NCBI GenBank assembly: GCA_013203315.1 | Contig: JABMQJ010000001.1 | Location: 32,001 to 96,000, forward strand | Length of the DNA stretch: 64,000 nucleotides | DNA from: Candidatus Omnitrophota bacterium | GTDB lineage: Bacteria > Omnitrophota > Gorgyraeia > JABMRN01 > RBG-13-46-9 | Direction: 5' to 3' | Shown: one piece after another, positions 12,226-27,952 of the stretch | Numbering within the stretch: position 1 is the first letter of the stretch | How the letters are laid out: every line of letters starts with the position of its first letter | Notes under the pieces: model-generated | Told to the model about the DNA's origin: nothing | Database searches by the model: none | The model's input: only the letters and a program-made list of their open reading frames with translations | Made by a program: the position numbers and the translations under genes

Positions 12226-12352
12226 ATTTTTGCGGGTTTTACCCTACGGAATCAGCTGGTATTGGCCTGCGGCTTGGCACTTTCGCCGGAGCTCTTTCCG
12301 TTAGCCCTCCCCCTTCTATTGGTGCAACCTAGGCATAAAGCCCGCTAAAATA
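12226..12352. repeat. Long hairpin repeat family E, copy 1
   Basis: ATTTTTGCGGGT..CCCTACGGAAT.AG..GGTATTGGC.TGCGGCTTGGCA..CGGAGC shared with 19628-19743; ends pair (ATTTTTGCGGG/CCCGCTAAAAT). Confidence 0.8.
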
Positions 12353-13599: not shown

Positions 13600-14213
13600 T
13601 GGCTAAAGAAGAATTTAGCTGGGTATATACAGGAATCGCCAAAGACCACTTCACTAATCCCAGGAATATTCTGGGAGATGAGGCCTCATTCAAGGATAAC
13701 GGAAAAGGTACCGTTGGCAACATGAAGTGCGGCGACCAGATGCTGGTAGCGATTAAGGTAGATAAGAGTAAAGGTACGATTACAGACTGTAAATGGAAAA
13801 CCTACGGTTGCGCAAGCGCTATCGCGAGCACTTCCATCATGTCGGAGATGGTAATAGGTATGACAATCGAGAAGGCTTATCACCTCTCCCCGAAAGACGT
13901 TGCCGCAGCACTTGGCGGTCTACCCGAACACAAAATACACTGCTCTGTACTAGGAGATAAAGCGTTACGCGCGGCAATAGACGACTACTACAAGCGTAAC
14001 GGAATGGAAGATAAGATCGTTAAAGAAAAAGCGCGCCTTGTATGTCAATGTATGAACGTAACCGACCACGAAATCGAGCACGCTGTCTTAGAAGGCGCAC
14101 GAACGCTCTACGAACTCCAGGAAAGAACCAAACTCGGCACCGTCTGCGGTCAGTGCAAACCCGAAGCAACTCGCCTCCTGCAACTCTACATCAAAAAACA
14201 TTTCAGTAAGTAA
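13599..14213 (+). CDS. nifU: IscU/NifU scaffold with C-terminal BFD-like [2Fe-2S] domain
   Basis: HFTNPRN, CGDQM, YGCASAIAS, KIHCS, then CQC...CGQC. Confidence 0.9.
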   Translation: MAKEEFSWVYTGIAKDHFTNPRNILGDEASFKDNGKGTVGNMKCGDQMLVAIKVDKSKGTITDCKWKTYGCASAIASTSIMSEMVIGMTIEKAYHLSPKDVAAALGGLPEHKIHCSVLGDKALRAAIDDYYKRNGMEDKIVKEKARLVCQCMNVTDHEIEHAVLEGARTLYELQERTKLGTVCGQCKPEATRLLQLYIKKHFSK

Positions 14214-14271
14214 AATATTATTCTATTTTTGATTTTTATTATAAAGAAGCTTATAACGCGGTAGGGTTTTG

Positions 14272-14300
14272 GATAGGCACTCTTAAGTGTGCCCTGCTTA
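14272..14300. repeat. REP-like hairpin family C, copy 1
   Basis: GGCACTCTTAAGTGTGCCCTGCTT identical to the core at 14766-14789. Confidence 0.8.
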
Positions 14301-14319
14301 CTTGAAAAATACAAAATAA

Positions 14320-14358
14320 GATGGCTCTACTTGAATTATTTAAACAAATAGAGCCATC
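14320..14358. terminator. Stem-loop between convergent nifU and 14368-14685
   Basis: GATGGCTCTA...TAGAGCCATC; T-rich tail on the minus strand. Confidence 0.65.
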
Positions 14359-14367
14359 CCGAATGCT

Positions 14368-14685
14368 TTATTTCTTATTTCCTAAAAGAAATTCCGGATT
14401 CTTAATTATTGGGCCATATTCAGGGAACGGAAAAGTAACTGTTTCAAACACTCCGCAAAGAACTCTTCCGCCAAATTTGAAAATCCCACCTAATGGTCCC
14501 CACGTTATGGCACCAAGAATTCCATCCTTCTCATACCCATCTTGGATTCCATTAAGTATTTCAAGCGGGCTTGTAACGATGTTTGTCACACCTCTGTAAA
14601 GTTTTTTGGCGGCTAGATCAGCATAAGCTGCGGTAGCGCTAAATAACATTACACCGATAAGAAGCAGGATAATTAGCTTTTTCAT
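14368..14685 (-). CDS. Exosortase system-associated protein (TIGR04073-like)
   Basis: Signal peptide then KLYRGVTNIVTSPLEI...R...GVFETVTFPFP; own promoter TTGCAG-17-TATACT at about 14711-14739. Confidence 0.75.
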   Translation of the reverse strand: MKKLIILLLIGVMLFSATAAYADLAAKKLYRGVTNIVTSPLEILNGIQDGYEKDGILGAITWGPLGGIFKFGGRVLCGVFETVTFPFPEYGPIIKNPEFLLGNKK

Positions 14686-14748
14686 TTTTTTACCTCCTTA
14701 TTTTAAATATAGTATACCCAATGAAAATCAATACTGCAAATATACTTC

Positions 14749-14791
14749 AGTTATCCACAGGGTAGGGCACTCTTAAGTGTGCCCTGCTTGC
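14749..14791. repeat. REP-like hairpin family C, copy 2 (with DnaA-box-like 9-mer)
   Basis: AGTTATCCACAGGGTAGGGCACTCTTAAGTGTGCCCTGCTTGC; supplies the last codons and stop of the tautomerase. Confidence 0.85.
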
Positions 14792-14976
14792 TTTCTGTCG
14801 CAAATTAACTGGCCGCCGACTCCAACGTTTTCCGGTGCATTTTCCTTGATTACCGCTACAATAACCGCGGGAGGTAACTTATATGCCTTTACTGCTGCTT
14901 CAGTCACTTCTTTGATTAAAGCTCGTTTCACCTCTAAATCTTTTATCTTTGGTCCTTCCACTGTAATATTAGGCAT
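14773..14976 (-). CDS. 4-oxalocrotonate tautomerase family (DmpI-like)
   Basis: N-terminal Pro (MPNITVEGP), KR.LI..VT, ENVGVGG. Confidence 0.85.
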   Translation of the reverse strand: MPNITVEGPKIKDLEVKRALIKEVTEAAVKAYKLPPAVIVAVIKENAPENVGVGGQLICDRKQAGHT

Positions 14977-14999
14977 TCTTCCCCCTTTTTTGGATTTTT

Positions 15000-15062
15000 A
15001 CTCTTGTGCCATTTCAGAATCTGAACTCCTGTCTGCCGGCAGGTAGACAGGCTATTTTTGAA
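15000..15062. repeat. Cassette-boundary repeat A+B, copy 1
   Basis: ACTCTTGTGCCATTTCAGAATCTGAACTCCTGTCTGCCGGCAGGTAGACAGGCTATTTTTGAA. Confidence 0.85.
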
Positions 15063-15128
15063 AATGGTTCACTGTCCTCAATTTTAACGGTGTTTAAGTG
15101 GGTATACAGGGTGAGGATATGCTATGGC

Positions 15129-15554
15129 TCAGTCTACCTGATGCGCAGTCAAGAACATAGACTTCTCGAGAACAGTGAAAAAATCCTGATAAGACTCCGG
15201 ATTATCGACAGCCCTAAGCCCAAATTGAGCATTTGCCCTAACCAATAGTTGCGTTTCTCCTCTGGGCCTTACCGTAACAGTCATCTTTAATAAAGTATGC
15301 CTTGTAAATTTTGATGCTGTTACAGAGCCCAAGCTTAAATCTGCTCTATCAATAACAAATTCTAAATCTTGAAGAGTGCTTATTACTGTCCTAAGCATTT
15401 TTTTTCTATCGGTAGTATCAAAAGCCCTTGTTTGTATGCTACGCAATTGAACTTGGCTCTGTTCGGCATCAATTGTTCGCTGGGCAGTTGTTGTACAACC
15501 CGCTAAAGATAAAACGAAAAATAAAAGAAGAAGACCTCTTAACATTATTTTCAT
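15129..15554 (-). CDS. Lipoprotein, paralog of 15551-16123
   Basis: Lipobox LAGC; QLRSIQTRAFDT..LQDLEFVID..LG.VTASK. Confidence 0.8.
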   Translation of the reverse strand: MKIMLRGLLLLFFVLSLAGCTTTAQRTIDAEQSQVQLRSIQTRAFDTTDRKKMLRTVISTLQDLEFVIDRADLSLGSVTASKFTRHTLLKMTVTVRPRGETQLLVRANAQFGLRAVDNPESYQDFFTVLEKSMFLTAHQVD

Positions 15555-16123
15555 ATTTCCTGCCCTTCAAGGAATATTGCTTTTGATACTTTGTCGAAGA
15601 AACCTTGGTATAATTCTGGTCCTTTCAAAGTCTCCAGTCTAGAAACGTTTCCCAGTCTGTTCCAGACAATTCTCTGAAAGGTAGTGCGGACGATTAATTT
15701 ATTTCCTTCGGCGTTTAGCTTACTAACAACGGATACTCTAATTTTCTGCTCTTTATCAATATAGTCAAAAGCGTTTGTATTTGTGCCTGAGAGTGCGGCG
15801 AGGGCAACTGCTGCGGTTGCTGCCGCAACCTGAACTGCATCTGTTGCATCTCTACTTTTTGAAGCTACAACAAGCCCTAATTCTGTTTCGCTATCGTCAA
15901 GCGTAAAGCCCATATCTTGAAGAGCACCGGCGCAGGCTGAGAGTACTTCTGCTTCGTTTATCGTTTCAAATTGCCGCATTTGTAACTGGCGTACTTGCAG
16001 ACTGTCCTCTGATAGGGTAAATAATTTTTTAGGGGTGGTAGCAATACAACCTGTTATAGAAATGCACAAAACAAGGAGTGACGGTAAGATAAAGTCTTTT
16101 TTTAATTTTGTAACTTTAAGCAT
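15551..16123 (-). CDS. Lipoprotein
   Basis: Lipobox ITGC; QVRQLQMRQFET..LQDMGFTLD..LGLVVASK. Confidence 0.8.
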   Translation of the reverse strand: MLKVTKLKKDFILPSLLVLCISITGCIATTPKKLFTLSEDSLQVRQLQMRQFETINEAEVLSACAGALQDMGFTLDDSETELGLVVASKSRDATDAVQVAAATAAVALAALSGTNTNAFDYIDKEQKIRVSVVSKLNAEGNKLIVRTTFQRIVWNRLGNVSRLETLKGPELYQGFFDKVSKAIFLEGQEI

Positions 16124-16125
16124 AT

Positions 16126-16524
16126 TTAAAATTTAGAAGCGTGATATGCAAAATCTCTTACTTTGCCCTCATTGTCAAACTTGATAACAATGGTCAAGGT
16201 TCTCTGCGTAGTCGATTTTGCTCCGGCGGTCCCAGGTGTTAGAAATTTTAGACCGGCATTGCTATCCGAATATACTATATCAGTAGCTATTTTATCGTAG
16301 ACCCATACTTCCCGTCGCTGCTCATCAGTGGTTACAACATTGGGAGAACCTAATGTCTCTACAACCTTCGATGAGGGCATTCCGATCAAAATTTCACGCT
16401 GGACTTTGCCCACAGTTATCCTATCCCCGGTATCATCCTGCACTTCTCTTCTATGATAACTAGCTGACGCACATCCCATTAAGAATATTAAAGAAACAAC
16501 TACTATAATAAGTTTTTTATCCAT
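16126..16524 (-). CDS. Lipoprotein, SmpA/OmlA(BamE)-like
   Basis: Lipobox LMGC; IGM....V...LGSPN...EVWVY; IKFD..GKV. Confidence 0.75.
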   Translation of the reverse strand: MDKKLIIVVVSLIFLMGCASASYHRREVQDDTGDRITVGKVQREILIGMPSSKVVETLGSPNVVTTDEQRREVWVYDKIATDIVYSDSNAGLKFLTPGTAGAKSTTQRTLTIVIKFDNEGKVRDFAYHASKF

Positions 16525-16557
16525 GATTCCCCCCTATTTTCATTAGTATTGTTTTAT

Positions 16558-16586
16558 ATTTTAGTCTTGCCGGTATTGAATGTCAA
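16558..16586 (-). promoter_or_regulatory. Sigma70 promoter for the lipoprotein trio
   Basis: TTGACA-17-TAAAAT on the minus strand. Confidence 0.7.
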
Positions 16587-16606
16587 GCCTATTTAGCGAT
16601 TCTCTA

Positions 16607-16681
16607 TCTGAACTACCCTTCGACCGTTTCAGAATCTAAATTCCTACCTAACGGTAGGCAGGCCGGCAGGTTATTTTTGAA
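16607..16681. repeat. Cassette-boundary repeat A+B, copy 2
   Basis: CCCTTCGACCGTTTCAGAATCTAAATTCCTACCTAACGGTAGGCAGGCCGGCAGGTTATTTTTGAA. Confidence 0.85.
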
Positions 16682-17104
16682 TTAGAAGTCCTCGCTTTTT
16701 AAACCATGCCTTGAACGTAGTTTTTTCTTTTCCGCCCTCTTCTTTTTATTCCTAAGCATCTTTTCTTTTGCTCTGCGGGATCGCCGGCGTTTTTGCCTTC
16801 TTATCTTTTCTATCCTTTTTCTTTCTTCCGAATGCCTTCCCAGTATGTGCGCTTCGATTTTGCCCGTGAGGCGCCTGCGCGCTATAAATCTATTTAAAGC
16901 CTGCGAGCGCTCTTCCTGGCATTTTACCTCTATGCCGGTCGGCCCATGCCTAAGATGCACGCAGGTAGATACCTTATTAACATTTTGACCGCCCTTTCCG
17001 CCTGAACGGACAAACCACTCCTCCATGTCCTGTTCGCGGATACCAAGCTTCCGCATCTTCGCCTTCAGGGCTTCTTCTTTACTGCTGCTCACACCGAATT
17101 GCAT
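16682..17104 (-). CDS. arfB: Peptidyl-tRNA hydrolase domain release factor (ArfB/YaeJ-like)
   Basis: [13 protein letters not shown] (GGQ), ERSQALNR, long basic C-terminal tail. Confidence 0.75.
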
Positions 17105-17115
17105 AATTGAAATCC

Positions 17116-17156
17116 ACTTTTCGACCGTTTAAGAATCTGAACTCCTGCCTGCCGGC
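17116..17156. repeat. Cassette-boundary repeat A+B, copy 3
   Basis: CTTTTCGACCGTTTAAGAATCTGAACTCCTGCCTGCCGGC. Confidence 0.85.
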
Positions 17157-17177
17157 TTTAAAGTAACAAATCGATCA

Positions 17178-17543
17178 CTAGGCGGAATAGACTAAGAGAG
17201 CTCCGAAAGCTAAGGCCAAAAGACTGATCAGGCGCATGGATAAAATAGGTTTTCCCTGCCACCAGTCAAGATAGGTATATATCGATTTTGGTTTTATCAC
17301 AAGTAAAAGCACACCCTTTATGATCGACCAGATACCAAGTACCTTAATCAGTAATACTATCCTGCACTGCGGGGCAGCAATTAAAAAGACGATACCGAAA
17401 AGAAGTGCCAAAATACCGCCGACCTTTAGCCTTTTTTCATTTCTCCAGAACGCAATATATCCTTTTAAAGTATTTTTCCTTACTAAAAAAAGGATTCCAA
17501 TAACCATAATAATTACACCAAAAAGCCTGACAACCATAACCAT
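17178..17543 (-). CDS. Small 4-TM membrane protein
   Basis: Four hydrophobic segments; GGAGG RBS. Confidence 0.75.
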   Translation of the reverse strand: MVMVVRLFGVIIMVIGILFLVRKNTLKGYIAFWRNEKRLKVGGILALLFGIVFLIAAPQCRIVLLIKVLGIWSIIKGVLLLVIKPKSIYTYLDWWQGKPILSMRLISLLALAFGALLVYSA

Positions 17544-17559
17544 AAGTACCTCCCTTTTT

Positions 17560-17610
17560 TACTCTTCGACCATTTCAGAATCTGAACTACTGTCTGCTAG
17601 CAGGTAGGCT
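17560..17610. repeat. Cassette-boundary repeat A+B, copy 4
   Basis: TACTCTTCGACCATTTCAGAATCTGAACTACTGTCTGCTAGCAGGTAGGCT. Confidence 0.85.
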
Positions 17611-17620
17611 CTACTTTGTC

Positions 17621-18115
17621 TTAAAACCCAAGAAACATTAGCCACCTGGCACGCCTTCCCAGTAAATCAGCTCGTTCAACCCTGTTAATATCTCGCAGTA
17701 ATTTATCACGCGTTTCCGTTATGCCACGTTCAGTAATTTTTAGCTTCTCATATTCTATTCCGCCGGCTTTAATAAACTCAACGGCTTTCTGCAATTCTCC
17801 TTCATCGAAAAACGTCCCATGTTTTTTACACTTATCGACAACAATTCCCGAGTGATGCATGTAGTTTTTGCGCCACATCAATCTACTACAACGGGGGCAT
17901 TTGCAATACTTTACTTTTTCCGTACGCCCCAAAGGTTTATATACCTTGTGTAAATCACGTAGCTCACTCACGGTAAAGACTTCCGGAATTATCTTCAATA
18001 CCTGTTTTTCTTCGAACTTATCTACCCATACACCTTTACATTTTGGACAAATGTCGGTTTCGATACCGTTTTCCTTGAACACCTTCATTTCAATATCACA
18101 TTTGGGACATTTCAT
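17621..18115 (-). CDS. Tandem zf-TFIIB Zn-ribbon protein
   Basis: CPKC..M...D.CPKCKGVWVD and CPRC..M...D.C..HG.FFD.GEL. Confidence 0.85.
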   Translation of the reverse strand: MKCPKCDIEMKVFKENGIETDICPKCKGVWVDKFEEKQVLKIIPEVFTVSELRDLHKVYKPLGRTEKVKYCKCPRCSRLMWRKNYMHHSGIVVDKCKKHGTFFDEGELQKAVEFIKAGGIEYEKLKITERGITETRDKLLRDINRVERADLLGRRARWLMFLGF

Positions 18116-18188
18116 TTTCCTCTCCTATATAAACTTCTCCCTGCCTATTTAAAATCGCGGACGTTATAAAGCTACCGCCGGGACAGGC

Positions 18189-18854
18189 CTAAGATCGTGC
18201 TTTGCCCCGCCCCATACCTTCCCGGAGGCCAACCACCAGAAATAACATTCCGACTATCTGGATAAGATGAAAAATACCGTTGTTATCAAATTTCCAAATA
18301 AGCCGGGCAGCAATATCCTTGTTAGCTTGAAAAATTGCGGCGATGATTGTGAAGAGAACCCCGATCGCTATTAATCCGGCGCCGCCGAGTCGCTTTCGCA
18401 AGGCCAACCAGCTGTAAGCGATCAAAACAAAGGTCATGGTAATTGCCTCGTAAATAATAAAAACCAGAAAAGTTCTCGGAAAAAGCAGGTTCACCGCGTA
18501 AAAGGCTACCCCAATCGCAAGCATGACCGGAAGCATCCGACGGACAGCAGCGCGGCCCAGCATGTCGTAGATGGCCCCAAGGATAAATAAAACAACCACG
18601 AAACCCAATGCCAAAAAGAGTGGTTGCCACAGAATATTCTCTAATGCCTCGGACATTTTAAGGCCATGCAGTAATGCCCCCGATGCGGACGAAAAGGTGA
18701 CCAGCCCAAAGAACCATGACCAGATATTTGTTCTCTGCATATCACGCTGCTTGGTTCGGCGCAGGTAAAAGAGGCAAGCCGCGGCAACTAAGGCTAAAAC
18801 CGCATCTGTCACGGCTGTCGTTTGCTCTATTGGTATATTAGTGATTTCCAGCAT
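18189..18854 (-). CDS. Multi-pass membrane protein (conserved hypothetical)
   Basis: About 7 TM segments; EQTTAVTD, GALLHG, FDNNGIFHLIQ. Confidence 0.75.
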   Translation of the reverse strand: MLEITNIPIEQTTAVTDAVLALVAAACLFYLRRTKQRDMQRTNIWSWFFGLVTFSSASGALLHGLKMSEALENILWQPLFLALGFVVVLFILGAIYDMLGRAAVRRMLPVMLAIGVAFYAVNLLFPRTFLVFIIYEAITMTFVLIAYSWLALRKRLGGAGLIAIGVLFTIIAAIFQANKDIAARLIWKFDNNGIFHLIQIVGMLFLVVGLREGMGRGKARS

Positions 18855-18866
18855 TAAATTCGTAAC

Positions 18867-18882
18867 CTTAGACCGTTTTCGA
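18867..18882. repeat. Degenerate repeat A core
   Basis: CTTAGACCGTTTTCGA versus consensus CTTCGACCGTTTCAGA; same orientation and same position relative to a start codon. Confidence 0.5.
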
Positions 18883-18890
18883 TAAAATGA

Positions 18891-19529
18891 TTATCTATCT
18901 ATCAGTTTACTGACCGTCTCCATGCAATGATTCACAATCTCTTTAATAATATTTAACATATCAAGATATCGGACCTTTGCCCATTCATCACAAATTCCCT
19001 TTGCTGACCTATCTATATGGTTAAGGCGACTTTTTTCTATTAATGCGTAGAGGGATGATTTATTTTTTAAAATATTTTTGCCTAACTTCCTATCATTAGT
19101 CTTCACCGCCACAATTGTAACTGACAAAATCTCTTCTATATTGTTACATAGCTCCTTATATTCTTGCAATGCTTTGTCACTAAATAACAATTTTTCACTA
19201 ACTTTATACTCAATTCGTTCTACTAAATCTACACATAGATCTCCCATCCTCTTAATTGCGCCGATAATGCTTACCAAATCAATGACTATTTTTTTAGCTT
19301 TGCCTGATGATTTCTTTTTGGAAATTTCGATTGCTAAGGTAGTTAAATTAGTATAAGCTTCATTAATTTTTGTTTCATTCTTAAGCACCTGATCTAAGAG
19401 CTTGATATCGTTCTTCATCAAACCATTAAAGTTAGTACGAAACATTATTTGAACCCGTTCTAACATTTCTATGGTCTCTTGTCTTAATGAAGCTATTTTT
19501 CTTAATTCAGCTTTATTTAATTTGGCCAT
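18891..19529 (-). CDS. PhoU-domain protein (Na/Pi cotransporter C-terminus-like)
   Basis: Two helical PhoU-like repeats, RMGD, HIDR..KG.C, YLDML. Confidence 0.75.
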   Translation of the reverse strand: MAKLNKAELRKIASLRQETIEMLERVQIMFRTNFNGLMKNDIKLLDQVLKNETKINEAYTNLTTLAIEISKKKSSGKAKKIVIDLVSIIGAIKRMGDLCVDLVERIEYKVSEKLLFSDKALQEYKELCNNIEEILSVTIVAVKTNDRKLGKNILKNKSSLYALIEKSRLNHIDRSAKGICDEWAKVRYLDMLNIIKEIVNHCMETVSKLIDR

Positions 19530-19540
19530 AGTTTTACTCC

Positions 19541-19591
19541 CTCTTTTACCGTCTCAGAATCTAAAACCTGCCTACTACTAATATTGTAGGC
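19541..19591. repeat. Cassette-boundary repeat A+B, degenerate copy
   Basis: CTCTTTTACCGTCTCAGAATCTAAAACCTGCCTAC...GTAGGC. Confidence 0.7.
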
Positions 19592-19627
19592 TTGGCGTTG
19601 TTCAAAGTCAAGGGGCAAAAAAGTGAC

Positions 19628-19743
19628 ATTTTTGCGGGTACTGCCCTACGGAATGAGAGGGTATTGGCGTGCGGCTTGGCATTTAACGACGGAGCCCTGC
19701 CAATACCCTCTCATTCCGTTGATTGGCAGGGACTCGCAAAAAT
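19628..19743. repeat. Long hairpin repeat family E, copy 2
   Basis: Perfect 21-bp stem ACGGAATGAGAGGGTATTGGC/GCCAATACCCTCTCATTCCGT inside outer stem ATTTTTGCG/CGCAAAAAT. Confidence 0.85.
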
Positions 19744-19819
19744 ATGCTTTTATATTGAGGGGTTTTTTGTTATAATTTTAGTCATTCAAACCGATAAACT
19801 ATCAAGAAGGAGGAAATCA

Positions 19820-20476
19820 ATGAAGATATTAATTTTAATAGTAGCGATGTGCATGATGGCAGCGAATGTGTTTGCCGAGGGGGATATGGCAACGCAGGCA
19901 AGTCCTTCGGTGACGATAAAACTTCCGACGCCCGAGACGAGCGGAGGCAAACCGTTGATGCAGGCGCTGAAAGATAGAAAATCGAGTAGAAACTTTAGTG
20001 ACAAGGAGTTACCACAGCAGGTATTATCCGACCTTTTGTGGGCAGCGTTCGGCATAAACAGGCCGGATTCAGGAATGCGCACGGCACCCACAGCGCATAA
20101 TATGCAGGAAATCTATATTTTTGTGGCAATGTCCAAAGGCCTTTATCTTTATGAACCAAAGCAGCATATATTGAAGCTGATGCTAGCCGAAGATATACGC
20201 GCTGTAACCGGTATGCAGGAGTTTGTGGCAACAGCACCGGTGAACCTTATCTATGTGGCGGAATATTCCAAGATGGCCAATATAGGCAGTGAGAAAGACT
20301 TTTACTCAGCTACAGACACCGGATTTATTTCTCAGAATGTATATTTATATTGCGCATCGAAGGGCCTGGCAACAGTCGTACGCGGCTGGGTAGACAGGAA
20401 AGCTCTGGGAAAAGCAATGAACCTACGCCCCGACCAGAAGATAATCCTTGCCCAGACGGTCGGGTACGAAAAATAA
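19820..20476 (+). CDS. Nitroreductase / SagB-ThcOx family FMN oxidoreductase with signal peptide
   Basis: RKSSRNF, LLWAAFGINR, RTAPTA, DTGFISQNVYL; start moved to 19820 (AGGAGG RBS). Confidence 0.88.
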   Translation: MKILILIVAMCMMAANVFAEGDMATQASPSVTIKLPTPETSGGKPLMQALKDRKSSRNFSDKELPQQVLSDLLWAAFGINRPDSGMRTAPTAHNMQEIYIFVAMSKGLYLYEPKQHILKLMLAEDIRAVTGMQEFVATAPVNLIYVAEYSKMANIGSEKDFYSATDTGFISQNVYLYCASKGLATVVRGWVDRKALGKAMNLRPDQKIILAQTVGYEK

Positions 20477-20481
20477 CGAAG

Positions 20482-20524
20482 AGTTATTCACAGGGCAGGG
20501 CGCTCTTGGGGGTGCCCTGCTTGC
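20482..20524. repeat. REP-like hairpin family C, copy 3
   Basis: AGTTATTCACAGGGCAGGGCGCTCTTGGGGGTGCCCTGCTTGC; abuts the NYN gene stop codon. Confidence 0.85.
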
Positions 20525-21024
20525 TATAGCACGCCTTTACCCTCTAGATATTCCTCGTAATAATCAGTTACTTTTCTGTTTTTCGTTGCGCTAAACGACT
20601 TATCCGCATGCATGGCCGGTTTATTGGCATGTTTTTTGGTTTTTTGCAAGAATGTTGGGTATTCAACCCGCGCACCGTGCACGCGAGAGCCATTTCGTAC
20701 CCGGTTATCATGCGATATGACAGTTATGCTAGATGGCTCCTTCGAATTCTTCACCATGCTTATTATGCGATCATCCGCTGCTTCTTTGGCGCGCGTAAAA
20801 ACGCAGTCAATGCCGCCTATCTTTGTGCGGGAATAATCCATAAAGTCGACATCCCTCCCGTCAAATACTATAATAATTTCCGCATTAACACGGCTACGCT
20901 TCCATCCCGCCACATGCATTGCCAGGGCGCTCCTGGCTTCGGCAAGGCTTTCCTTAAGCTTCGCCGTGAGCTCCGAAATCCGGTAAATAACGTTATATCC
21001 GTCTAGTATAAATATCTTTTTCAT
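20524..21024 (-). CDS. NYN/YacP-like PIN-fold ribonuclease
   Basis: ILDGYNV, IVFDG, ADDRI, VISHD. Confidence 0.85.
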   Translation of the reverse strand: MKKIFILDGYNVIYRISELTAKLKESLAEARSALAMHVAGWKRSRVNAEIIIVFDGRDVDFMDYSRTKIGGIDCVFTRAKEAADDRIISMVKNSKEPSSITVISHDNRVRNGSRVHGARVEYPTFLQKTKKHANKPAMHADKSFSATKNRKVTDYYEEYLEGKGVL

Positions 21025-21037
21025 ATCCGTGAGTTAT

Positions 21038-21063
21038 CTTTCGACCGTTTCAGAATTTGGGCT
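21038..21063. repeat. Cassette-boundary repeat A
   Basis: CTTTCGACCGTTTCAGAATTTGGGCT. Confidence 0.85.
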
Positions 21064-21084
21064 CAACGCAGAACAGTGTATTTA

Positions 21085-21131
21085 AATTATACCCCTAAAA
21101 TAGAAACGCCTCAAGGAAAACCTTGAGGCGT
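21085..21131 (-). terminator. Intrinsic terminator overlapping a sigma70-like promoter
   Basis: ACGCCTCAAGG-TTTT-CCTTGAGGCGT followed by TTCTATTTT; contains TTGAGG-17-TATAAT. Confidence 0.7.
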
Positions 21132-21156
21132 CACGGTACACTGTTTCGTTCAAATT

Positions 21157-21984
21157 TTATTCTATATCCTCGTCTTTCCCGTTAATGAATTGCAACATGG
21201 ATGCTCTGTTTTTTTGAATACGGTTTGCAATAAGTTTCAGGGACCCTTCGTCTAACTCCGGTTTTTCTGTCTCGGTTTCGGATTGCGCGGGTGTTTCTGT
21301 AATCTTGGTGGTTACTGCAATTGTGCAACCCGTGTTACGAGACGCCTCGAGATCGCTTGAAAAAAAGTTAACCATATACGGCTTAGGGTCGTGGTACACA
21401 ATCGTCTGAACAAGCCAAGCGTCTTCATACCACATTTCACCCTTATCAAGAGGTTCTCCCGGCTGTGGCAGATGTGGCTGATTATATACAATTAACTGGA
21501 CAAGCCGGCCATCCTTATAGTTATACTCGGGATAACCGTCTATTTCGCTGGGATCTATCGGAAGGTACTCCCTTATATCCATATTGGGAAACTTCAGGTC
21601 CACCGGGTATTTTTCGTATTCTTTTTTTGGTATCAACGGTTCTCTGGGCAACTCTATTATCCTGGCAATCGGGTTTTCTAAGCCTGGCTTCGGAGCCAAA
21701 CCGCGTACGGGATCGGACCCTATGTCTTTATTAGGGTATTTAATTATCTCGAAACCCTTTTCGGGCAGCTCGATATTATCCCCTATTTCTTTTTTCACGA
21801 TCAACTCTTTTTTCGTTTCTAGCACTTCCTTAAACTGTTTCACGGATCTGCTCGGAATTTCTTTGAGTTCTTTATCTTTATATGCATTCGCTTTGCCTTT
21901 TTCGGCAAGGCAAGGACTCTGAGAAACCACAATACCCAAACAGATTACGAGCACGATAACCTTAATTGTCATTCTGCCATTCAT
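21157..21984 (-). CDS. Secreted hypothetical protein
   Basis: N-terminal signal peptide; GGGGG RBS; no recognisable domain. Confidence 0.7.
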   Translation of the reverse strand: MNGRMTIKVIVLVICLGIVVSQSPCLAEKGKANAYKDKELKEIPSRSVKQFKEVLETKKELIVKKEIGDNIELPEKGFEIIKYPNKDIGSDPVRGLAPKPGLENPIARIIELPREPLIPKKEYEKYPVDLKFPNMDIREYLPIDPSEIDGYPEYNYKDGRLVQLIVYNQPHLPQPGEPLDKGEMWYEDAWLVQTIVYHDPKPYMVNFFSSDLEASRNTGCTIAVTTKITETPAQSETETEKPELDEGSLKLIANRIQKNRASMLQFINGKDEDIE

Positions 21985-22114
21985 TTCATTTACCCCCTTC
22001 TTGCTTACGGTTTTTAAAACTCTTTACTTTCGTGTCAAAAAAATAACTCGAATCTCATACTCTATAACAAAATCACAGCTTGTTTACTCCTGTTATTTTC
22101 TGACTATTTTATTC

Positions 22115-23548
22115 TTAATTTTGCTTACTTCTTATCATTTGAGCTTCAGGGCTTCTCGGGTATTTTCGTAATACAAGCGCATAATAGTGCTCTGCTTCCT
22201 TTGTATTATTCAGTCTTTCTTCATATATAATTCCCGTAGCATACAGTGCCATGCTTGCAAACGTAGACTCGGGATATTTACGAGAGACCTTTTGGAAAGT
22301 CTCTATCGCTTTCTCGGACATGCCAAGATAGTTGTAATAGGCACCTATAAAAAGGAAGATCTGTGGCTTATGGCCCAAACTCGGATGCATGGCCATTATC
22401 GCTTCCAGCGTCCTAATTCCCTGCAAGTGTTTACTTCTGTCCTTTGTCTTTATCGCATTGTCTATTAACTCAATCGCCTTCCTAAGGTCAAGAGCGGCTT
22501 CTTTCGGCTCGAGGTCAGATATATATAATGGGGCGGGCCTTAAGAGCTCTCTTGTCCTGTATTTTCCATTACTGATTAAAAGCGCAACCTGGACTTTCTC
22601 TCCGATTTCATAGAACTCCGTCATTTCCTGCCATTCTTTTTCCAATAGCTGGCGCGGGGCCATGGGTGCCTCCCCCTTAAATACTTCTGTTGCCTCCCCG
22701 CCACCTAGTATTACCTGCTGCTGTTTAAGCGCTCCTTCTGGTATGAATGTTGACACAACCTTTACCCTGCCGTTTAATACACCAAGCCGCGTCATCATTG
22801 AGGGCTGTGCGGAAACATCTACTAAAAAATCAGTTCCCAGCGCCGTGGCTGTGGCTTCGGGAGTTGCCATGACAAAACGTGACCCCTTGAATTTTTTGCT
22901 TAAACGCACCAGCGTTTTACCTTTTTTGAGGTTGTATACTGTCTTGCCGGGCACATATTTTGGCAATAACTTCGCTATTTTTATTTCAGAATTCTGCTTA
23001 ATCCTGACCCTGTATTTATTTGTATGCGCTATGTCAACAAAAGATCCACTGTCAACGGTTAGCGTATCGTTCTTGCCGAGTAGTAGCCCTTTGGTTCCTT
23101 TGGCCCACTTACGCCCCCTATGACTGTAAATCATTACTTTGCCCTTTACCGTCACAATCTGTACGGGCTGGACCACTAAATATGTAAGAACCCCGTATGC
23201 CGACACAAACAAAAGGAGCGTTACGACAACCCTTGCAAGCATGGGCGCAGGCAGGACAAAGACTTCCCGGGTTCTTTGAAGAACGCGAGTTACAATGAAA
23301 CCTATCCTGTTTTCTTCCCTGCTTTTTAAAGTGTTACGCAGTTTTTGATTGAAGGCCCGGTCGAAAGAGGTAGACAGCTTTTCTCTATCCGCATGCCTAA
23401 TGACCAGATTCGAATTCTTTAATAAAAGGGCTGTTTTCCTGCAGGATTCGCACTCGCTAAGATGGCTCTCTACCCTTTCCCTTTCAGGGAGAGAGCACCT
23501 CTGATCTATATATCTCGATAATAATTCGAAAGGCATTTTGTGCTTCAT
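22115..23548 (-). CDS. Anti-sigma factor: zf-HC2 + TM + FecR + TPR
   Basis: LSRYID..HLSECESC, TM segment, TPEATATALGTDFLV, C-terminal TPR repeats (YPES, YPRS). Confidence 0.85.
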   Translation of the reverse strand: MKHKMPFELLSRYIDQRCSLPERERVESHLSECESCRKTALLLKNSNLVIRHADREKLSTSFDRAFNQKLRNTLKSREENRIGFIVTRVLQRTREVFVLPAPMLARVVVTLLLFVSAYGVLTYLVVQPVQIVTVKGKVMIYSHRGRKWAKGTKGLLLGKNDTLTVDSGSFVDIAHTNKYRVRIKQNSEIKIAKLLPKYVPGKTVYNLKKGKTLVRLSKKFKGSRFVMATPEATATALGTDFLVDVSAQPSMMTRLGVLNGRVKVVSTFIPEGALKQQQVILGGGEATEVFKGEAPMAPRQLLEKEWQEMTEFYEIGEKVQVALLISNGKYRTRELLRPAPLYISDLEPKEAALDLRKAIELIDNAIKTKDRSKHLQGIRTLEAIMAMHPSLGHKPQIFLFIGAYYNYLGMSEKAIETFQKVSRKYPESTFASMALYATGIIYEERLNNTKEAEHYYALVLRKYPRSPEAQMIRSKQN

Positions 23549-24132
23549 TTTACGCCACTTTTTTGCGGAATTTTAATTTTCTTTATAAACTGTTTCCGTG
23601 CCCTTGCAAGCCGCGAAGAAATTGTCTTCATATTTGTTTTCAGCACTTTGGCTGCCTCTTCGTAAGAAAGGCCTTCTATTACGCAGAGCGCAATGACATC
23701 CCTGTAAAGCGGATGAAGGCTTTTCAGGGCATTTTCTATCGCTTCCTTGAGTTCCTTATTTTTCACGAAGGAATCTGCCGAAAACCCGTCTTTCGTCAAT
23801 ACGCCTTCGAGGTTGATATCCATGTCCCCTTTTCCCGCTCGACCGGACAAAGATACCTGCCGCATCGAACTCCTTTTCTTTAATTCGTTTTTTGCCAGAT
23901 TCGAAGCTATTGTATAAATCCAGGCCTTAAAAAGCCCCCTGGGCTCGTATCTATTGATGTTAAGGTATATGTTTATAAAAACTTCCTGCGTAAGCTCTTC
24001 GGCAACCGCCCTATCGCCTATCTTTCTGTTGATGAAATTAAATATTCTTTCCTTGTACGCATTATACAATTCATCAAAGCAGGCCCGGTCGCCTTCCCTG
24101 AATTTCCTTACCAGGGCATCGTCTTTATTCAT
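23545..24132 (-). CDS. ECF RNA polymerase sigma factor
   Basis: AEELTQEVF, FKAWIYTIASN, GLSYEEAA..L...TISSRLARAR; start moved to MNKDD. Confidence 0.92.
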   Translation of the reverse strand: MNKDDALVRKFREGDRACFDELYNAYKERIFNFINRKIGDRAVAEELTQEVFINIYLNINRYEPRGLFKAWIYTIASNLAKNELKKRSSMRQVSLSGRAGKGDMDINLEGVLTKDGFSADSFVKNKELKEAIENALKSLHPLYRDVIALCVIEGLSYEEAAKVLKTNMKTISSRLARARKQFIKKIKIPQKSGVK

Positions 24133-24220
24133 TACCCTCTCTATATATATTAAACAATATTTTGTGCCGAAAACTCCACGTTCTATAGACATTCTGTATC
24201 AGCTTGCTTTTTTTGTCAAT

Positions 24221-24261
24221 AAAAAAAACGGGACTGGTTTTTACCAAATCCCGTTTTTTTT
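24221..24261. terminator. Bidirectional intrinsic terminator
   Basis: A8-CGGGACTGGT-TTTT-ACCAAATCCCG-T8. Confidence 0.85.
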
Positions 24262-24290
24262 GTTATCTGCGATTTAACGCTGATTGTTAC

Positions 24291-25844
24291 TTATTCATCT
24301 TCCTCTTCGCTTCCTGTCTCATCTTCGGCATCGTATGAGCTGAAGGCCTCCAGGAGAATTATGGCGCCTTTACCGCCTGAATAAACAGCACCCGGCGTTT
24401 CCCGGAGAATACCTTTAAATGCTTCCTGCAACTTATTTTTGTGCTGCATCCATTCGTTTTCCAACAACGAAATCTTGTTAACCCGGCCTGTGTTGAAGTT
24501 TTTTGCGAAATCCATTTTTGCGGCAGGTACTTTTCCGCGTGTCCCAAACTTTTCGGCTTTTTCAAAAAGATTATTTGGCTTTGATGCGGATCCCCCCTCC
24601 TGTATCGGGCTTTGGTTTTTGCCGGTCTTATAGGCGTAAATCGGTTGCGCTTCATATGCTGCTTTTTGATCTTCGATAACCTGTGGCTTATACAATTTAA
24701 TATCTACGCTTTCGGTTCGCTCATCGTTTAATTTTCCGGCAATCTTTTGCTTGGTAACATTGAGGCCAACGAAAATTTCCTTTATTTCTGTTATTCTTCC
24801 GGGCTCTACGCCGGGTGGCCGCGTATATGTTACTGCTATTGTCCAATCATCATTGGTAATGGTAAGGGTGTATCCTCCGCCGTAAGCTGATTCTGACAAG
24901 CTCAAAACAGTATCTCCAAACTGTTGCGGCATGGGTTGTCCCCAATAGTTTCTGGCAAACCACACCAGTATGACTCCTAAAAGCTCGCGCATTTCACCGT
25001 CCATGCGGGATACGCCAAAACCGCTACTTTCCGGGCCTTCATACCGCGAATACCAGCCCCCGTGAGGCAGCCTATAAAAGTTTCTGTATTCTTCTATATC
25101 ATCCAAATCATTGAACTCGCCATCCCCGTTTGTATCAAGGAGATTCTTTGCGAGTTCGTCCAAAAAGTCTCGTAAATCCTCGTCGATTTGACGCTGAAAA
25201 AGTTCGGCGAAGGATTCTTCAACGGGATCCCTTGCATCAACGGGATCCCTTGCATCAATAATAATAAGCTTGCTGTTTTCGTCGTCCCACTTAATCGTAA
25301 AACCATCACCGATCGGTATCTTCATAGAGACACCTTCGTCTTTCTCTTTATCCCCGTCCGGATCTCCGTTATTACCTTTAAGCGCTTCGAGCGCGCTTTC
25401 AAGATCTCTTAATCTAATATCTAATTTTTCACGAATATCTTTTTCCGAATCGTCATCCTGATATATACTGATTATATCTTCCAGAATATCCGAGAGCCCC
25501 TTGCTTGGCAGTCCCTTGTTTAGCAGATTTTCGATCTCTTTATTCAGCAAGCCTTTGTATGTTTCAAGGATTTTTGGCAAAGGCGGATCATTCTTCGGCT
25601 TTATCGTTATGGACAAGTTATCTCTGGATTTCTCAGAGAGACTATTTTTCAATTCCAGGTACTGACTCACCAGGGCTTCCCGTTGGGGGTTATATACAGC
25701 GACAATCTTGCCGGAAACCTTTGCCTTGGGCTTCTCCGAAATGCTTTTTGCGTGCGCAAAATCACAGGGAAGCGTCGAAGAGACAAAAGCCACCACCACT
25801 GACATCGCTAAAATCCTATTAAATATTCTTTTCCTGTTTAACAC
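24291..25844 (-). CDS. Secreted acidic hypothetical protein with an EF-hand/dockerin-like loop
   Basis: Signal peptide (..FAHA-K), DTNGDGEFNDLDD; GTG start with GGAG RBS. Confidence 0.7.
   Translation of the reverse strand: MLNRKRIFNRILAMSVVVAFVSSTLPCDFAHAKSISEKPKAKVSGKIVAVYNPQREALVSQYLELKNSLSEKSRDNLSITIKPKNDPPLPKILETYKGLLNKEIENLLNKGLPSKGLSDILEDIISIYQDDDSEKDIREKLDIRLRDLESALEALKGNNGDPDGDKEKDEGVSMKIPIGDGFTIKWDDENSKLIIIDARDPVDARDPVEESFAELFQRQIDEDLRDFLDELAKNLLDTNGDGEFNDLDDIEEYRNFYRLPHGGWYSRYEGPESSGFGVSRMDGEMRELLGVILVWFARNYWGQPMPQQFGDTVLSLSESAYGGGYTLTITNDDWTIAVTYTRPPGVEPGRITEIKEIFVGLNVTKQKIAGKLNDERTESVDIKLYKPQVIEDQKAAYEAQPIYAYKTGKNQSPIQEGGSASKPNNLFEKAEKFGTRGKVPAAKMDFAKNFNTGRVNKISLLENEWMQHKNKLQEAFKGILRETPGAVYSGGKGAIILLEAFSSYDAEDETGSEEEDE
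25219..25258. repeat. In-frame 18-bp tandem duplication
   Basis: TCAACGGGATCCCTTGCA x2 + TCAA; encodes DARDPV-DARDPV. Confidence 0.9.
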
Positions 25845-26053
25845 TTTTTTAACTCCGTTCTAAAGTGGGTAAAAAAAATACCCCTCACACACGGTGTGCC
25901 TTGTATATACAAGTGTACCATAAATTAAAGGGTCTTGTGGGGGGAAATATCTTACTTTTTTATAGCCTAACAAGGTTAAGTGGCATTAGGAATTATTCTA
26001 GGGACGGTTCTCGCTAAGTCTTTTATTTACAGTTGGTTGCGGATTGCTTCATC

Positions 26054-26097
26054 TACTCTTGTACCGTTTCGGGCGCTCTTGGGGGTGTCCTGCTTGT
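26054..26097. repeat. Fused half of repeat A + family C hairpin
   Basis: TACTCTTGTACCGTTTC joined to GGGCGCTCTTGGGGGTGTCCTGCTTG. Confidence 0.8.
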
Positions 26098-26331
26098 TCA
26101 CTTCCCCTTTGACCCTCTAATTGCCCAGAGGATAAGACGGATAAGTAAATAGACGGGGTATCCGAGAAGCATAAACATGAACGCGAATGTGACTATTTGC
26201 TGACCGGCTTGTTCACCAACTATTGCAAACTCGGTCATACGCAGGGCAAATATGACAATTGCGGATATGACCACGATGCCGAGCAATATGAGCCCTTCCT
26301 TCTTTATGATTTTTTTTATACCATCTTTCAT
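26098..26331 (-). CDS. Small 2-TM membrane protein
   Basis: Two hydrophobic helices; AAGGAG RBS. Confidence 0.65.
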   Translation of the reverse strand: MKDGIKKIIKKEGLILLGIVVISAIVIFALRMTEFAIVGEQAGQQIVTFAFMFMLLGYPVYLLIRLILWAIRGSKGK

Positions 26332-26344
26332 CCAGACATCTCCT

Positions 26345-26418
26345 TGCCTGCCGGCAGGCAGACTTTAATTAGGCCCCAGGGACAGTTCTTAATCTGTCCC
26401 TTGCCTGAACCGTTCCTA
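26345..26418. repeat. Family B palindrome plus GGGACAG..CTGTCCC hairpin and GAACCGTTCC motif
   Basis: TGCCTGCCGGCAGGCA; GGGACAGTTCTTAATCTGTCCC; GAACCGTTCCTA. Confidence 0.7.
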
Positions 26419-26433
26419 TTTTCAATTTTTGAC

Positions 26434-26661
26434 TTACAGCTCGAACTTGCTTTTATCTACTCTCGCGGTTTTAGAAAATTTTTCTTTAACACCATCCAGA
26501 GTATCCTGGAGAGCCTTAAATATTTTCTCCACCTCTTCCGGCGTGGATTCGTAACCGGCACCCGATAAATTACCCAACAGTTCTATCTTCTTTATCGCAT
26601 TCGTTACCCTCTGCGTCGCGAGTCTTTTAAACTTATCATGTTTGCTTTCAGATTCTGCCAT
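26434..26661 (-). CDS. Small conserved hypothetical protein
   Basis: KHDKFKRLATQRVTNAIKKIELLGNLS...Y; GAGG RBS. Confidence 0.75.
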   Translation of the reverse strand: MAESESKHDKFKRLATQRVTNAIKKIELLGNLSGAGYESTPEEVEKIFKALQDTLDGVKEKFSKTARVDKSKFEL

Positions 26662-26696
26662 ATTTTCCTCCTTTTTTTAAAATCGTTATTGTTTAG

Positions 26697-26722
26697 CTTT
26701 CGACCGTTTCAGAATCCGGAAA
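26697..26722. repeat. Cassette-boundary repeat A, rightmost copy
   Basis: CTTTCGACCGTTTCAGAATCCGGAAA. Confidence 0.85.
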
Positions 26723-26754
26723 TTCTTATCAGCTCGTGCATATCTTCCTCCTAT

Positions 26755-27267
26755 CTAATTTTCGGTTACATGCTCGATTACGCTGCTTTTTGCGATGTCA
26801 CCCGGGGATGTAGTGTCTGCTGTCGGGACTTCTGGGACTATGTCGAGCCCGCCGGAGTTGAAAGCCTCGTAGCAGAGCTCCGAACAGAAATAATCTTTAT
26901 CCTTTTGCCACGTATTGGCGATATCTTCAAAGGGGAGTTTAAGCTTTGAGAGAAGTTTTAAAAAACCCAGAAAAAATACGCCAAGGTAGTCATATTTATT
27001 GTTTAACGCGTCTACTAAATACGATATTGTGTTGTTTATATCAAAGCTATGCCCTTCTTTTATTCTATAAACATCATAGCCCTGTTTTATTTTCCTTATA
27101 TCACGGGCCCTTACGCCGCCTTTTGTTATCGCTTCTATCACAAGATTCATTTCCGGGGATACACAAACAGCGACGTGTGAATATTTACTACCAGTTCCCC
27201 ACTGTATGATCTTAGATATCCCGTCTTCTCCTTCAAATAAAAGTATATCGCCGGTTTTCATCTGCAT
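26755..27267 (-). CDS. Permuted papain-like NlpC/P60 (YiiX/YebB-like) hydrolase
   Basis: GDILLF, YSHVAV, YD, YFCSELC, TSPGDI. Confidence 0.85.
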   Translation of the reverse strand: MQMKTGDILLFEGEDGISKIIQWGTGSKYSHVAVCVSPEMNLVIEAITKGGVRARDIRKIKQGYDVYRIKEGHSFDINNTISYLVDALNNKYDYLGVFFLGFLKLLSKLKLPFEDIANTWQKDKDYFCSELCYEAFNSGGLDIVPEVPTADTTSPGDIAKSSVIEHVTEN

Positions 27268-27269
27268 AA

Positions 27270-27935
27270 TTAAAACAATAGTTTTATTTTTGTGCCCAGC
27301 ACGTTATAGCTTATCCAATGCTTGGACTTCTTGCTGAATTGCCAGAGATAAAATACGTCCAGGCTTAAGTTTTTTATGATTTTAAAGTTGGCGCCTGCGT
27401 AGAGCCTGTTTCTGTTTAGTTCGCCCGCATCGAAATCAACAAATACCTCATCAGCTACATACGGCGTAAATTTAAACTGGTCTAGTTCCAGCGGATACCC
27501 CACCGTAAATTTATTTCTATAGCGCCACTTGGTGTTGGAATTTTCGGGCATTCTCCACTCCAACCTACCACGATTACTCAACGAAAAACCATCTGTCTTA
27601 TGTTTAAGCGTGGCATTAAAGTGCGGCCTGTTTTCATATTCCCAACCGTTACTTCCCTCTTCAAAAGCCAAGCGATAGTTAACCCCTACATCGAGCCATT
27701 CGGCGAGACCCGCATACGTTACCCCTACATCAGAATGCTGATAATAAAAATCGCTTACGCCGTCTCCGAACCGAAATTCTTCTTCTACTTTTATTTTCCA
27801 GTCCTCATTTATTTTATATGATATATTTTCCGTGTTCCAATACTGAAAATCACCGTCATCAAAAGCAAAACATGCGCCTGATAAAAACAATATTACAGTT
27901 AAAGCAACAAAGAAAATCTTTCCCCGATTCGACAT
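27270..27935 (-). CDS. DUF2490-like outer membrane beta-barrel protein
   Basis: Signal peptide, E.RF, ENRP, R.R.E.R, NRNRLY.G, C-terminal Phe. Confidence 0.78.
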   Translation of the reverse strand: MSNRGKIFFVALTVILFLSGACFAFDDGDFQYWNTENISYKINEDWKIKVEEEFRFGDGVSDFYYQHSDVGVTYAGLAEWLDVGVNYRLAFEEGSNGWEYENRPHFNATLKHKTDGFSLSNRGRLEWRMPENSNTKWRYRNKFTVGYPLELDQFKFTPYVADEVFVDFDAGELNRNRLYAGANFKIIKNLSLDVFYLWQFSKKSKHWISYNVLGTKIKLLF

Positions 27936-27952
27936 TTTCTCCAGTTTCCTCC

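Follow-up and report, generated by a model that had tools for sequence, protein, structure and literature searches.

Repeat A and a RAYT-like gene

The window analysed here is a 64-kb stretch of one contig from an Omnitrophota genome (G000; 1.5 Mb in 32 contigs), in which a short intergenic repeat, repeat A, recurs in one orientation between small unrelated genes. Sequence comparison identified repeat A as homologous to the inverted repeats that flank, on contig C18 of the same genome, a gene resembling those of REP-associated tyrosine transposases (RAYTs; REP, repetitive extragenic palindrome). The best reading would be a REPIN-RAYT-like system (REPIN, a REP doublet forming a hairpin), new for Omnitrophota, in which co-oriented single arms form an unusual array between the genes of a plastic island. 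The original prediction, made from the letters of the window, had taken the array for an integron-like gene-capture platform and had proposed a repeat-specific recombinase or an HUH/RAYT-type enzyme acting in trans; the tie to the latter was borne out by the homology with the C18 flanks.

A search for Y1/HUH transposases turned up such a gene immediately next to a copy of A in G004, one of the fourteen genomes of the family that we compared (G000 included), and the orthologous RAYT-like gene of G000 lies at G000:C18:80282-80764. It is intact (161-164 aa, no stops) and is flanked on both sides by inverted arms of ~65 nt, the right-hand arm beginning in the last codons of the gene. The protein scored 75.6 bits against the NCBIfam model of REP-associated tyrosine transposases (NF047646), just below the cut-off of 80, and 29.7 bits against the IS200 model, the cut-off of which is 55. 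It carries the motifs HVH, Y-x4-NPVRAN and ITRG, where the last residue of the second is N, not the G of the RAYT consensus. In the relevant passages of Nunvar 2010 (PMC2817692), the RAYT gene is flanked by two repeats in inverted orientation, and the hallmarks of the protein are an HUH motif, a catalytic Tyr, an NP(L/V)(R/K)xG motif and a conserved N-terminal Thr. G000 has one RAYT of this clade (a single match at E <= 1e-8); its other Y1 gene, on C25, resembles IS200 and gave no match. Arms were also present on both RAYT flanks at G004:C9, where a RAYT-type arm is followed immediately by an A-type arm, on both flanks at G009:C126 and on the one flank assembled at G001:C2, and at G003:C55 the stretch before an A copy encodes a remnant (42 aa) of the RAYT C-terminus.

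Alignment of the copies placed A as the outer 27-40 nt of an arm of ~65 nt, which contains two GGGACA boxes and a central palindrome and in which no GTAG/CGTC head was seen. A full-length profile, built from 17 full-length A elements with all RAYT flanks excluded, matched the right flank of the C18 gene (E 2.9e-4) and the G004 flank (E 4.2e-6). At E <= 0.02 it returned 17 arms in G000, six in the window and 11 on eight other contigs in both orientations, and the genome holds ~20 arms overall. Three complete inverted doublets (on C19, C10 and C24) form hairpins of ~135 nt as single-stranded DNA (-50 to -56 kcal/mol, z ~-16), and the C24 doublet bears an A-type terminus. With arms occurring as inverted doublets at other places in the genome, the family as a whole is dispersed and only its shortened single-arm form is concentrated in the window. 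The earlier finding of no A copy in the other ~52 kb holds for the window and, for the A core, genome-wide, but not for the longer repeat family, which has about 12 further arms on 9 other contigs; likewise, dispersal in both orientations, as for an ordinary REP, the pattern that would speak against the original prediction, was found for the family but not for the shortened form.

Within the window, a profile built from 16 copies of A and run with nhmmer over the 64 kb returned seven significant copies, each of them intergenic and on the minus strand (E 1e-9 to 9e-5), and two weak ones coinciding with the sites called 'degenerate' and 'half' in the original prediction, which had counted about nine; nothing else in the window rose above noise (every other match E > 4). 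A 27-mer of A allowing up to 3 mismatches occurred at three sites, against none expected in 100 shuffles, and a repeat finder returned one-strand families of 4-5 copies. The copies are 67-88% alike and successive ones lie 445-5659 bp apart, with one to seven genes between. In six of the seven clear copies the 3' end of A precedes the next ATG by ~9-32 nt, in line with the earlier observation that most stand shortly before a start codon; at 16613-16648 the distance is ~89 nt, with a promoter-like site (TTGACA-17-TAAAAT at 16586-16558) between. Four clear copies (at 14997, 16613, 17113 and 17558) adjoin the palindrome B, as had been noticed, and the copy at 19540-19570 does so partly. These copies are shortened: they lack ~23 nt of the inner arm, and B stands in their place. 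The copy at 17558-17594 is 88% identical over 52 nt to that at 14995-15046 (repeat family D1), and in this repeat family a leader up to the ribosome-binding site is common to two A copies. Elsewhere in the 1.5-Mb genome a scan for the A core that tolerated 4 mismatches gave chance-level matches only, and one further B+A copy is truncated at the start of contig C6.

Matches to the A model were found in 12 of the 14 family genomes, with 1-9 in each, and inverted doublets also in G010, G011 and G012. A low-copy REPIN-RAYT-like system is common to at least 10 genera of this family of uncultured Omnitrophota, with genomes of 1-2 Mb. A literature search for RAYTs in Omnitrophota turned up no relevant paper. 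The large genes beside A in relatives were also considered as recombinases and rejected (Memo/AMMECR1, sulfotransferase, DUF5672, FeoB and others). At G003:C55 (L019 13143-13760), two small overlapping genes on the opposite strand, resembling a toxin-antitoxin pair, lie between two A copies.

An upstream motif (ATGCAGCAAAA ... GTTGTCTATATATA ... GAGG) precedes both the RAYT-like gene (C18 ~80230-80280) and the IS200-like Y1 gene (C25, upstream of 111776). The same ATGCAGCAAAA/GTTGTCTATATATA motif occurs at 880-935 of L120, a metagenome contig, beside a full-length arm; possibly it represents a shared promoter or leader.

The island and its variation among relatives

The short genes between the A copies belong to unrelated Pfam families (tautomerase, RF-1/ArfB, Zn_ribbon_TFIIB, DUF6962, PhoU and NYN_YacP, with several lacking a family), and their GC content ranges from 0.315 to 0.483, so that the differing base composition first judged by eye was confirmed. 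The features are listed in Table 1. The PhoU-like gene (GC 0.315, GC at third codon positions 0.31) is far more AT-rich than its neighbours and the window (0.441); its homologues in the family are just 30-32% identical, and it is probably a recent foreign arrival.

Table 1. Features of the repeat-bearing island, in window coordinates
Feature	Position	Strand	Basis or remark
Short single-arm A joined to hairpin B, upstream of tautomerase gene	14997..15034	-	nhmmer E 1.7e-7
Short single-arm A joined to B; then promoter-like site and lipoprotein trio	16613..16648	-	E 6.6e-9
Short single-arm A joined to half of B, upstream of ArfB-like gene	17113..17150	-	E 1.1e-9
Short single-arm A joined to B, upstream of g121	17558..17594	-	E 1.7e-8
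Repeat A, diverged; downstream of promoter-like site 19611-19583, upstream of PhoU-like gene	19540..19570	-	E 9.1e-5
Repeat A, full-length arm of ~65-75 nt, after terminator-like hairpin, upstream of NYN gene	21033..21107	-	Full-length profile E 2.2e-9; A core matched by the window profile at 21033-21069
Repeat A without B, between YiiX-like gene and g75	26693..26721	-	E 3.6e-7
Degenerate A remnant between PhoU-like and DUF6962 genes	18863..18878	-	E 0.5, not significant alone
3' half of A fused directly to C-type hairpin	26052..26070	-	E 0.59
GGGACAG...CTGTCCC hairpin after g75	26379..26400	-	Read from sequence
Hairpin B, GC-rich palindrome	15028..15051	.	More copies 16643-16675, 17139-17152 (half), 17590-17609, 26344-26363
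Hairpin C, 3' end of tautomerase gene, stop codon in loop	14749..14792	-	Repeat family D2
Hairpin C, further copies	20482-20525, 26055-26098; weak fourth 14259-14302		Repeat family D2
Co-directional run of short unrelated genes	14773..19529	-	Open reading frame (ORF) calls and Pfam
Tautomerase	14773-14976	-	
Three lipoprotein-like genes	15129-16524	-	
ArfB-like	16682-17104	-	
g121 (membrane protein, 121 aa)	17178-17543	-	
zf-TFIIB	17621-18115	-	
DUF6962	18189-18854	-	
PhoU-like	18891-19529	-	
NYN/YacP-like gene	20524..21024	-	Pfam 7.7e-22
Conserved locus core: g275, anti-sigma factor (zf-HC2/FecR/TPR), extracytoplasmic function (ECF) sigma factor, g517	21157..25844	-	Pfam
g77, small gene	26098-26331	-	No known family
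g75, small gene (75 aa)	26434-26661	-	No known family

Two other hairpins accompany the array. Hairpin B, which also stands alone at 26344-26363, shows no clear T run on the gene strand. Outside the array, GC palindromes of this type (CCTGCCGGCAGG and close variants) occur at eight loci on six contigs (C6, C12, C14, C19, C23 and C25), and at four of these loci the palindrome comes directly ahead of a ribosome-binding site and start codon. Such palindromes may form another REP-like family or be intercistronic hairpins. Hairpin C, as previously described, sits at gene 3' ends, in three copies and a weak fourth, and within the genome it is confined to this locus. Its tail holds a DnaA-box-like nonamer (TGTGGATAA / TGTGAATAA), its copy at 26055 is fused to the 3' half of A, and in Logan contigs a C copy stands in place of A before g121. 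The same 3' half of A precedes another gene, g94, in L132, a 1.3-kb metagenome contig. The hairpin at 26379-26400 resembles, compared by eye, the inner start of the full-length arm.

An unrelated MITE-like family (miniature inverted-repeat transposable element) with 21-nt terminal inverted repeats is present in the window at 19648-19719 (a pair) and 12246-12298, and also in G001, a genome of the same genus. It gave 39 arm matches in G000, many of them at contig ends; because so many contigs end inside its copies, it probably causes much of the assembly fragmentation.

The locus was compared with L017, a ~91%-identical contig (C45 of G001, a genome 81% complete), and with metagenome contigs. 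An exact-pattern scan of genome contigs gave 19 loci, just three of them in Omnitrophota and the remainder consistent with chance. A metagenome scan gave at least 80 loci; among the matches listed, 78 of 80 resemble chance matches in unrelated sequence and two, L120 (which has a full-length arm) and L132, are real, and since chance matches filled so many of the listed loci, relatives were probably missed. Joints between distant window positions were sought in Logan contigs, not raw reads, at a likeness threshold of 85%, in X1 and X4 (the likely source sample and its study) and in X5 and X7 (marine studies).

In G000 the order is YiiX, A, g75, B, g77, C with half-A, the core, A, NYN, C and a convergent nitroreductase gene, followed by a promoter, A, the PhoU-like gene and the remaining island genes. 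In L017 it is promoter, B+A, PhoU-like gene, a g77 remnant, NYN, half-B+A, g75, the new gene g94, the core, a terminator, A and the new gene g491. The two are 87-95% identical in DNA over the core (anti-sigma factor 94% and ECF sigma factor 92% in protein). The PhoU-like, NYN and g77 genes are relocated in L017, and g94 and g491 are absent from the G000 arrangement. The NYN gene (L017 11555-12064; 91% protein identity) is placed between the PhoU-like gene and g75, g77 bears an internal deletion, and g75 was found in three different upstream contexts. The tautomerase, lipoprotein trio, g121, zf and DUF6962 genes gave no blastn DNA match in the incomplete G001, where nifU is followed directly by a homologue of the window gene 29170-29895; in L132, A-g94-A abuts directly on the end of nifU. 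Across the family, the PhoU-like gene is present in six of the 14 genomes and the zf gene in four. From these relocations and gains and from the contigs of other samples, it follows that the island of accessory genes is truly plastic among close relatives.

NifS and NifU are just 73% and 63% identical in protein between G000 and G001 (L054, which is G001:C17), unlike the island core. Either the island was exchanged recently, or C45 comes from another, closer population and was binned into G001; the second is favoured because marine contigs carry nifU at ~91% identity.

The original prediction had asked whether the breaks between relatives fall exactly at A. Gene content and order do differ, and some breaks lie at the outer end of A while others do not. 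At one junction the homology of G000 with L017 extends across A and ends within ~2 nt of its outer end, with different genes beyond; the full-length arm at 21033-21107 is kept in L017 with a different gene after it, and the copy at 19540-19570 holds the same position in both. In G000 the g75 leader starts right after A, and in Logan contigs from another population the same leader comes right after the NYN stop codon. Other junctions of L017 lack A: NYN comes straight after the g77 remnant, g94 comes straight after the stop codon of g75, and the PhoU-like gene and g75 each have their 3' boundary at the stop codon. The NYN gene has A upstream in G000 and downstream in L017.

No joints were found in the X1 and X4 Logan contigs, a result uninformative on rare circles. 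Those used from X5 and X7 have short sides (20-43 nt). Two of them, 17150->20524 and 26678->17116, were independently confirmed by L017, and five rest on Logan contigs alone and are weaker evidence (17557->14751, 14793->19571, 19729->16661, 26682->20525 and 27261->27953). In the last of these, seen in one Logan contig, the DUF2490 gene (window 27270-27935) is missing from a related population, which would be a whole-gene gain or loss without A at the edges.

What the single arms may do

We think it probable that A is a REP-type single arm and that the short arms now serve mainly as homology patches for ordinary reshuffling, with no dedicated integron-like capture site. The short arms would have spread locally by duplication or gene conversion of modules of hairpin, A and leader, or by RAYT action on the arms. 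Once spread, they may act mainly as short stretches of homology, perhaps also as hairpin and leader modules in one long transcript, and ordinary recombination with horizontal exchange would swap whole genes at the arms, comparable to the PeSL (promoter early stem-loop) repeats of T4-type phages.

Several observations weigh against this account. The shortened single arm is found at four window sites (and partly at 19540-19570), at the start of C6 and at two sites in L017; since it shares a derived deletion and the fusion to B at several sites, a single arm has been copied, and single arms are regarded as defunct remnants in those parts of the REPIN work that treat them (PMC3116915). Between seven and nine of the ~20 arms of the genome, roughly 40%, lie within 12 kb and in the same orientation. 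The stop of G000-L017 homology ~2 nt from the outer end of A, and the start of the g75 leader right after A, point the same way, as does the placing of the outer end of A at most ~50 nt from a gene boundary in 12 of 19 copies in other genomes (by crude ORF calls). Finally, A copies are short and only 67-88% alike, and are therefore a poor substrate for RecA-dependent exchange.

In a different explanation, modules of leader, gene, hairpin B and A are cut out as single-stranded DNA circles and re-inserted by the C18 enzyme at the outer end of a co-oriented A. All window copies are co-oriented and all represent the outer-terminal part of the arm, one G000-L017 break falls at that end, the left edge of the g75 module is the end of A, A-g94-A stands at a different place in L132, and the shortened form has been copied to several sites. 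There is also a small A-A-gene-A-gene array at G004:C46, and a passage of Nunvar et al. (PMC2817692) proposes, for the formation of bacterial interspersed mosaic elements, that a RAYT cuts at two REPs on the same strand and circularises the module between. If this were true, the array would be the functional counterpart of an integron, with another enzyme at its base, REP/RAYT systems would have a role in gene capture, and a RAYT would assemble accessory genes into an operon-like array and rearrange them. Yet several junctions are free of A (those of NYN and g94 in L017, the 3' edges of g75 and of the PhoU-like gene, and the gain or loss of DUF2490). Because A lies on different sides of NYN in two genomes, no one constant site is carried by that gene. 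In other genera, none of eight loci with homologues of the PhoU-like or zf gene had an A-like element within the fetched flanks (E < 0.1). We therefore consider such cassettes unlikely, and with the breakpoints lacking A and the eight empty loci the undescribed cassette system of the original prediction was not upheld.

Even less probable, in our view, is that A acts in cis on co-regulated genes, whether as operator, as promoter (such as one for the ECF sigma factor nearby) or as 5'-untranslated element. Such a role would suit the distance of 9-32 nt to the start codon in six of seven window copies, the leader that two copies have in common up to the ribosome-binding site, and the ECF sigma/anti-sigma pair in the conserved core. 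However, A is dispersed outside G000, where crude ORF calls for 19 copies in other family genomes put the next gene co-oriented with it in nine and opposite in ten. A lies upstream of promoter-like sites at 16613-16648, in G004 and in G007 and downstream of one at 19540-19570, the short copies themselves have no sigma-70-like match, and the downstream genes are without common function. An Rfam search of 13000-28500 in E-value mode returned no match, and RNAalifold found no consensus structure for the 17 full-length elements on either strand. The conservation of A is explained by its homology to the RAYT flanks. Readings of A as an ECF promoter or as a sigma-54, dif/Xer, parS or hix/gix site were dropped by eye, the spacing or symmetry being unfit.

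A true integron, or an attC-only array (CALIN, cluster of attC sites lacking integron integrases) with unusual attC and an integrase unassembled or encoded elsewhere, is close to excluded: the co-oriented array of short unrelated genes, with the repeat marking every joint, resembles one, and a G003 arm holds a GTTCAAC...GTTGAAT pair fitting the R''/R' consensus, but these heptamers are just 11 nt apart and do not occur in the window copies, A shows homology to RAYT flanks, and neither an integron integrase nor an attC-like fold was found. Integron cassette arrays combine the integrase IntI, attI and attC, the last being an imperfect inverted repeat of 57-141 nt with R''/R' ends that folds as single-stranded DNA. 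None of the 14 family genomes passed the integron-integrase model (TIGR02249; best 97 bits against a cut-off of 265), and their tyrosine recombinases are each only Xer-like; of the three in G000, two are Xer-like and one is a generic phage type at 71.6 bits on the same scale. None of nine intergenic segments gave an attC-like single-stranded fold (z -1.95 to +0.9), as judged by folding, not by an attC covariance model. Thus the absence of attC stated in the original prediction was upheld and membership among integrons was not. Its statement that the window has no integrase or transposase holds for PF00589, TIGR02249 and PF01797, none of which matched on the window's contig; other transposase families were not searched there.

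Comparison with known systems

IS200/IS605 elements (insertion sequences) resemble the present system in their Y1/HUH enzyme and hairpin-bearing ends. They have an IS200-type TnpA and left and right ends that are not inverted, are usually present in several copies and, together with their transposase-less derivatives, are expected to behave in a strand- and orientation-specific manner. Here the ends are inverted repeats, the IS200 model score lies well under its cut-off and the clade has one copy in the genome, and this identity was rejected.

With integron arrays the island shares co-oriented short unrelated genes, a repeat at the joints near the next start codon and a content that varies among relatives. 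Unlike them, it has no IntI, attC fold or R''/R' ends, its repeat belongs to the family of an HUH transposase and some of its breakpoints lack the repeat. An integron-like layout can thus arise without integron parts, which is relevant to metagenome surveys of cassettes.

The PeSL of T4-type phages is described in sections of Arbiol 2010 (PMC2839356) as a composite stem-loop repeat, promoter plus terminator, between small non-essential genes in hyperplastic regions, where homologous recombination between repeats shuffles whole genes. The likeness of A to it would lie in the possible working, not in kind: A is not promoter-like, derives from transposon ends and sits in a bacterial chromosome. 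Identity with a PeSL-type cassette was rejected, as short A copies have no promoter-like match and B no clear T run. Comeau 2014 (PMC4122927) reportedly also concerns PeSL regulatory cassettes of T4-type phages.

The REP arrays of Pseudomonas fluorescens SBW25, as outlined in parts of PMC3116915, likewise have many single REPs in one orientation within one region; their spacing is 72-112 bp with no genes between, unlike the 445-5659 bp and the one to seven genes of the window.

The closest likeness is to REPIN-RAYT systems as presented in excerpts of PMC2817692 and PMC3116915 (Bertels & Rainey 2011): one Y1/HUH transposase gene of the clade per genome with two inverted flanking repeats, the same repeats between genes both as inverted doublets forming long hairpins and as single arms, and repeats that are lineage-specific, here common to the genera of the family. 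Those systems often exceed 100 copies per genome and have a GTAG/CGTC head, unlike the Omnitrophota arms, which number ~20 in G000 and 1-9 model matches per family genome and are ~65 nt long with internal GGGACA boxes. Further differences are the Omnitrophota host, the C18 score just below the NCBIfam cut-off and the multiplication of a shortened single arm in one gene-bearing locus. REPIN-RAYT systems have been described mainly from Proteobacteria, and a preprint attributes REPINs, in the portion concerned, to only two of five RAYT groups (10.1101/2021.07.10.451892). A strain-variable island with a multiplied short arm is a place to ask whether RAYT enzymes, or merely their repeats, drive the shuffling of whole genes.

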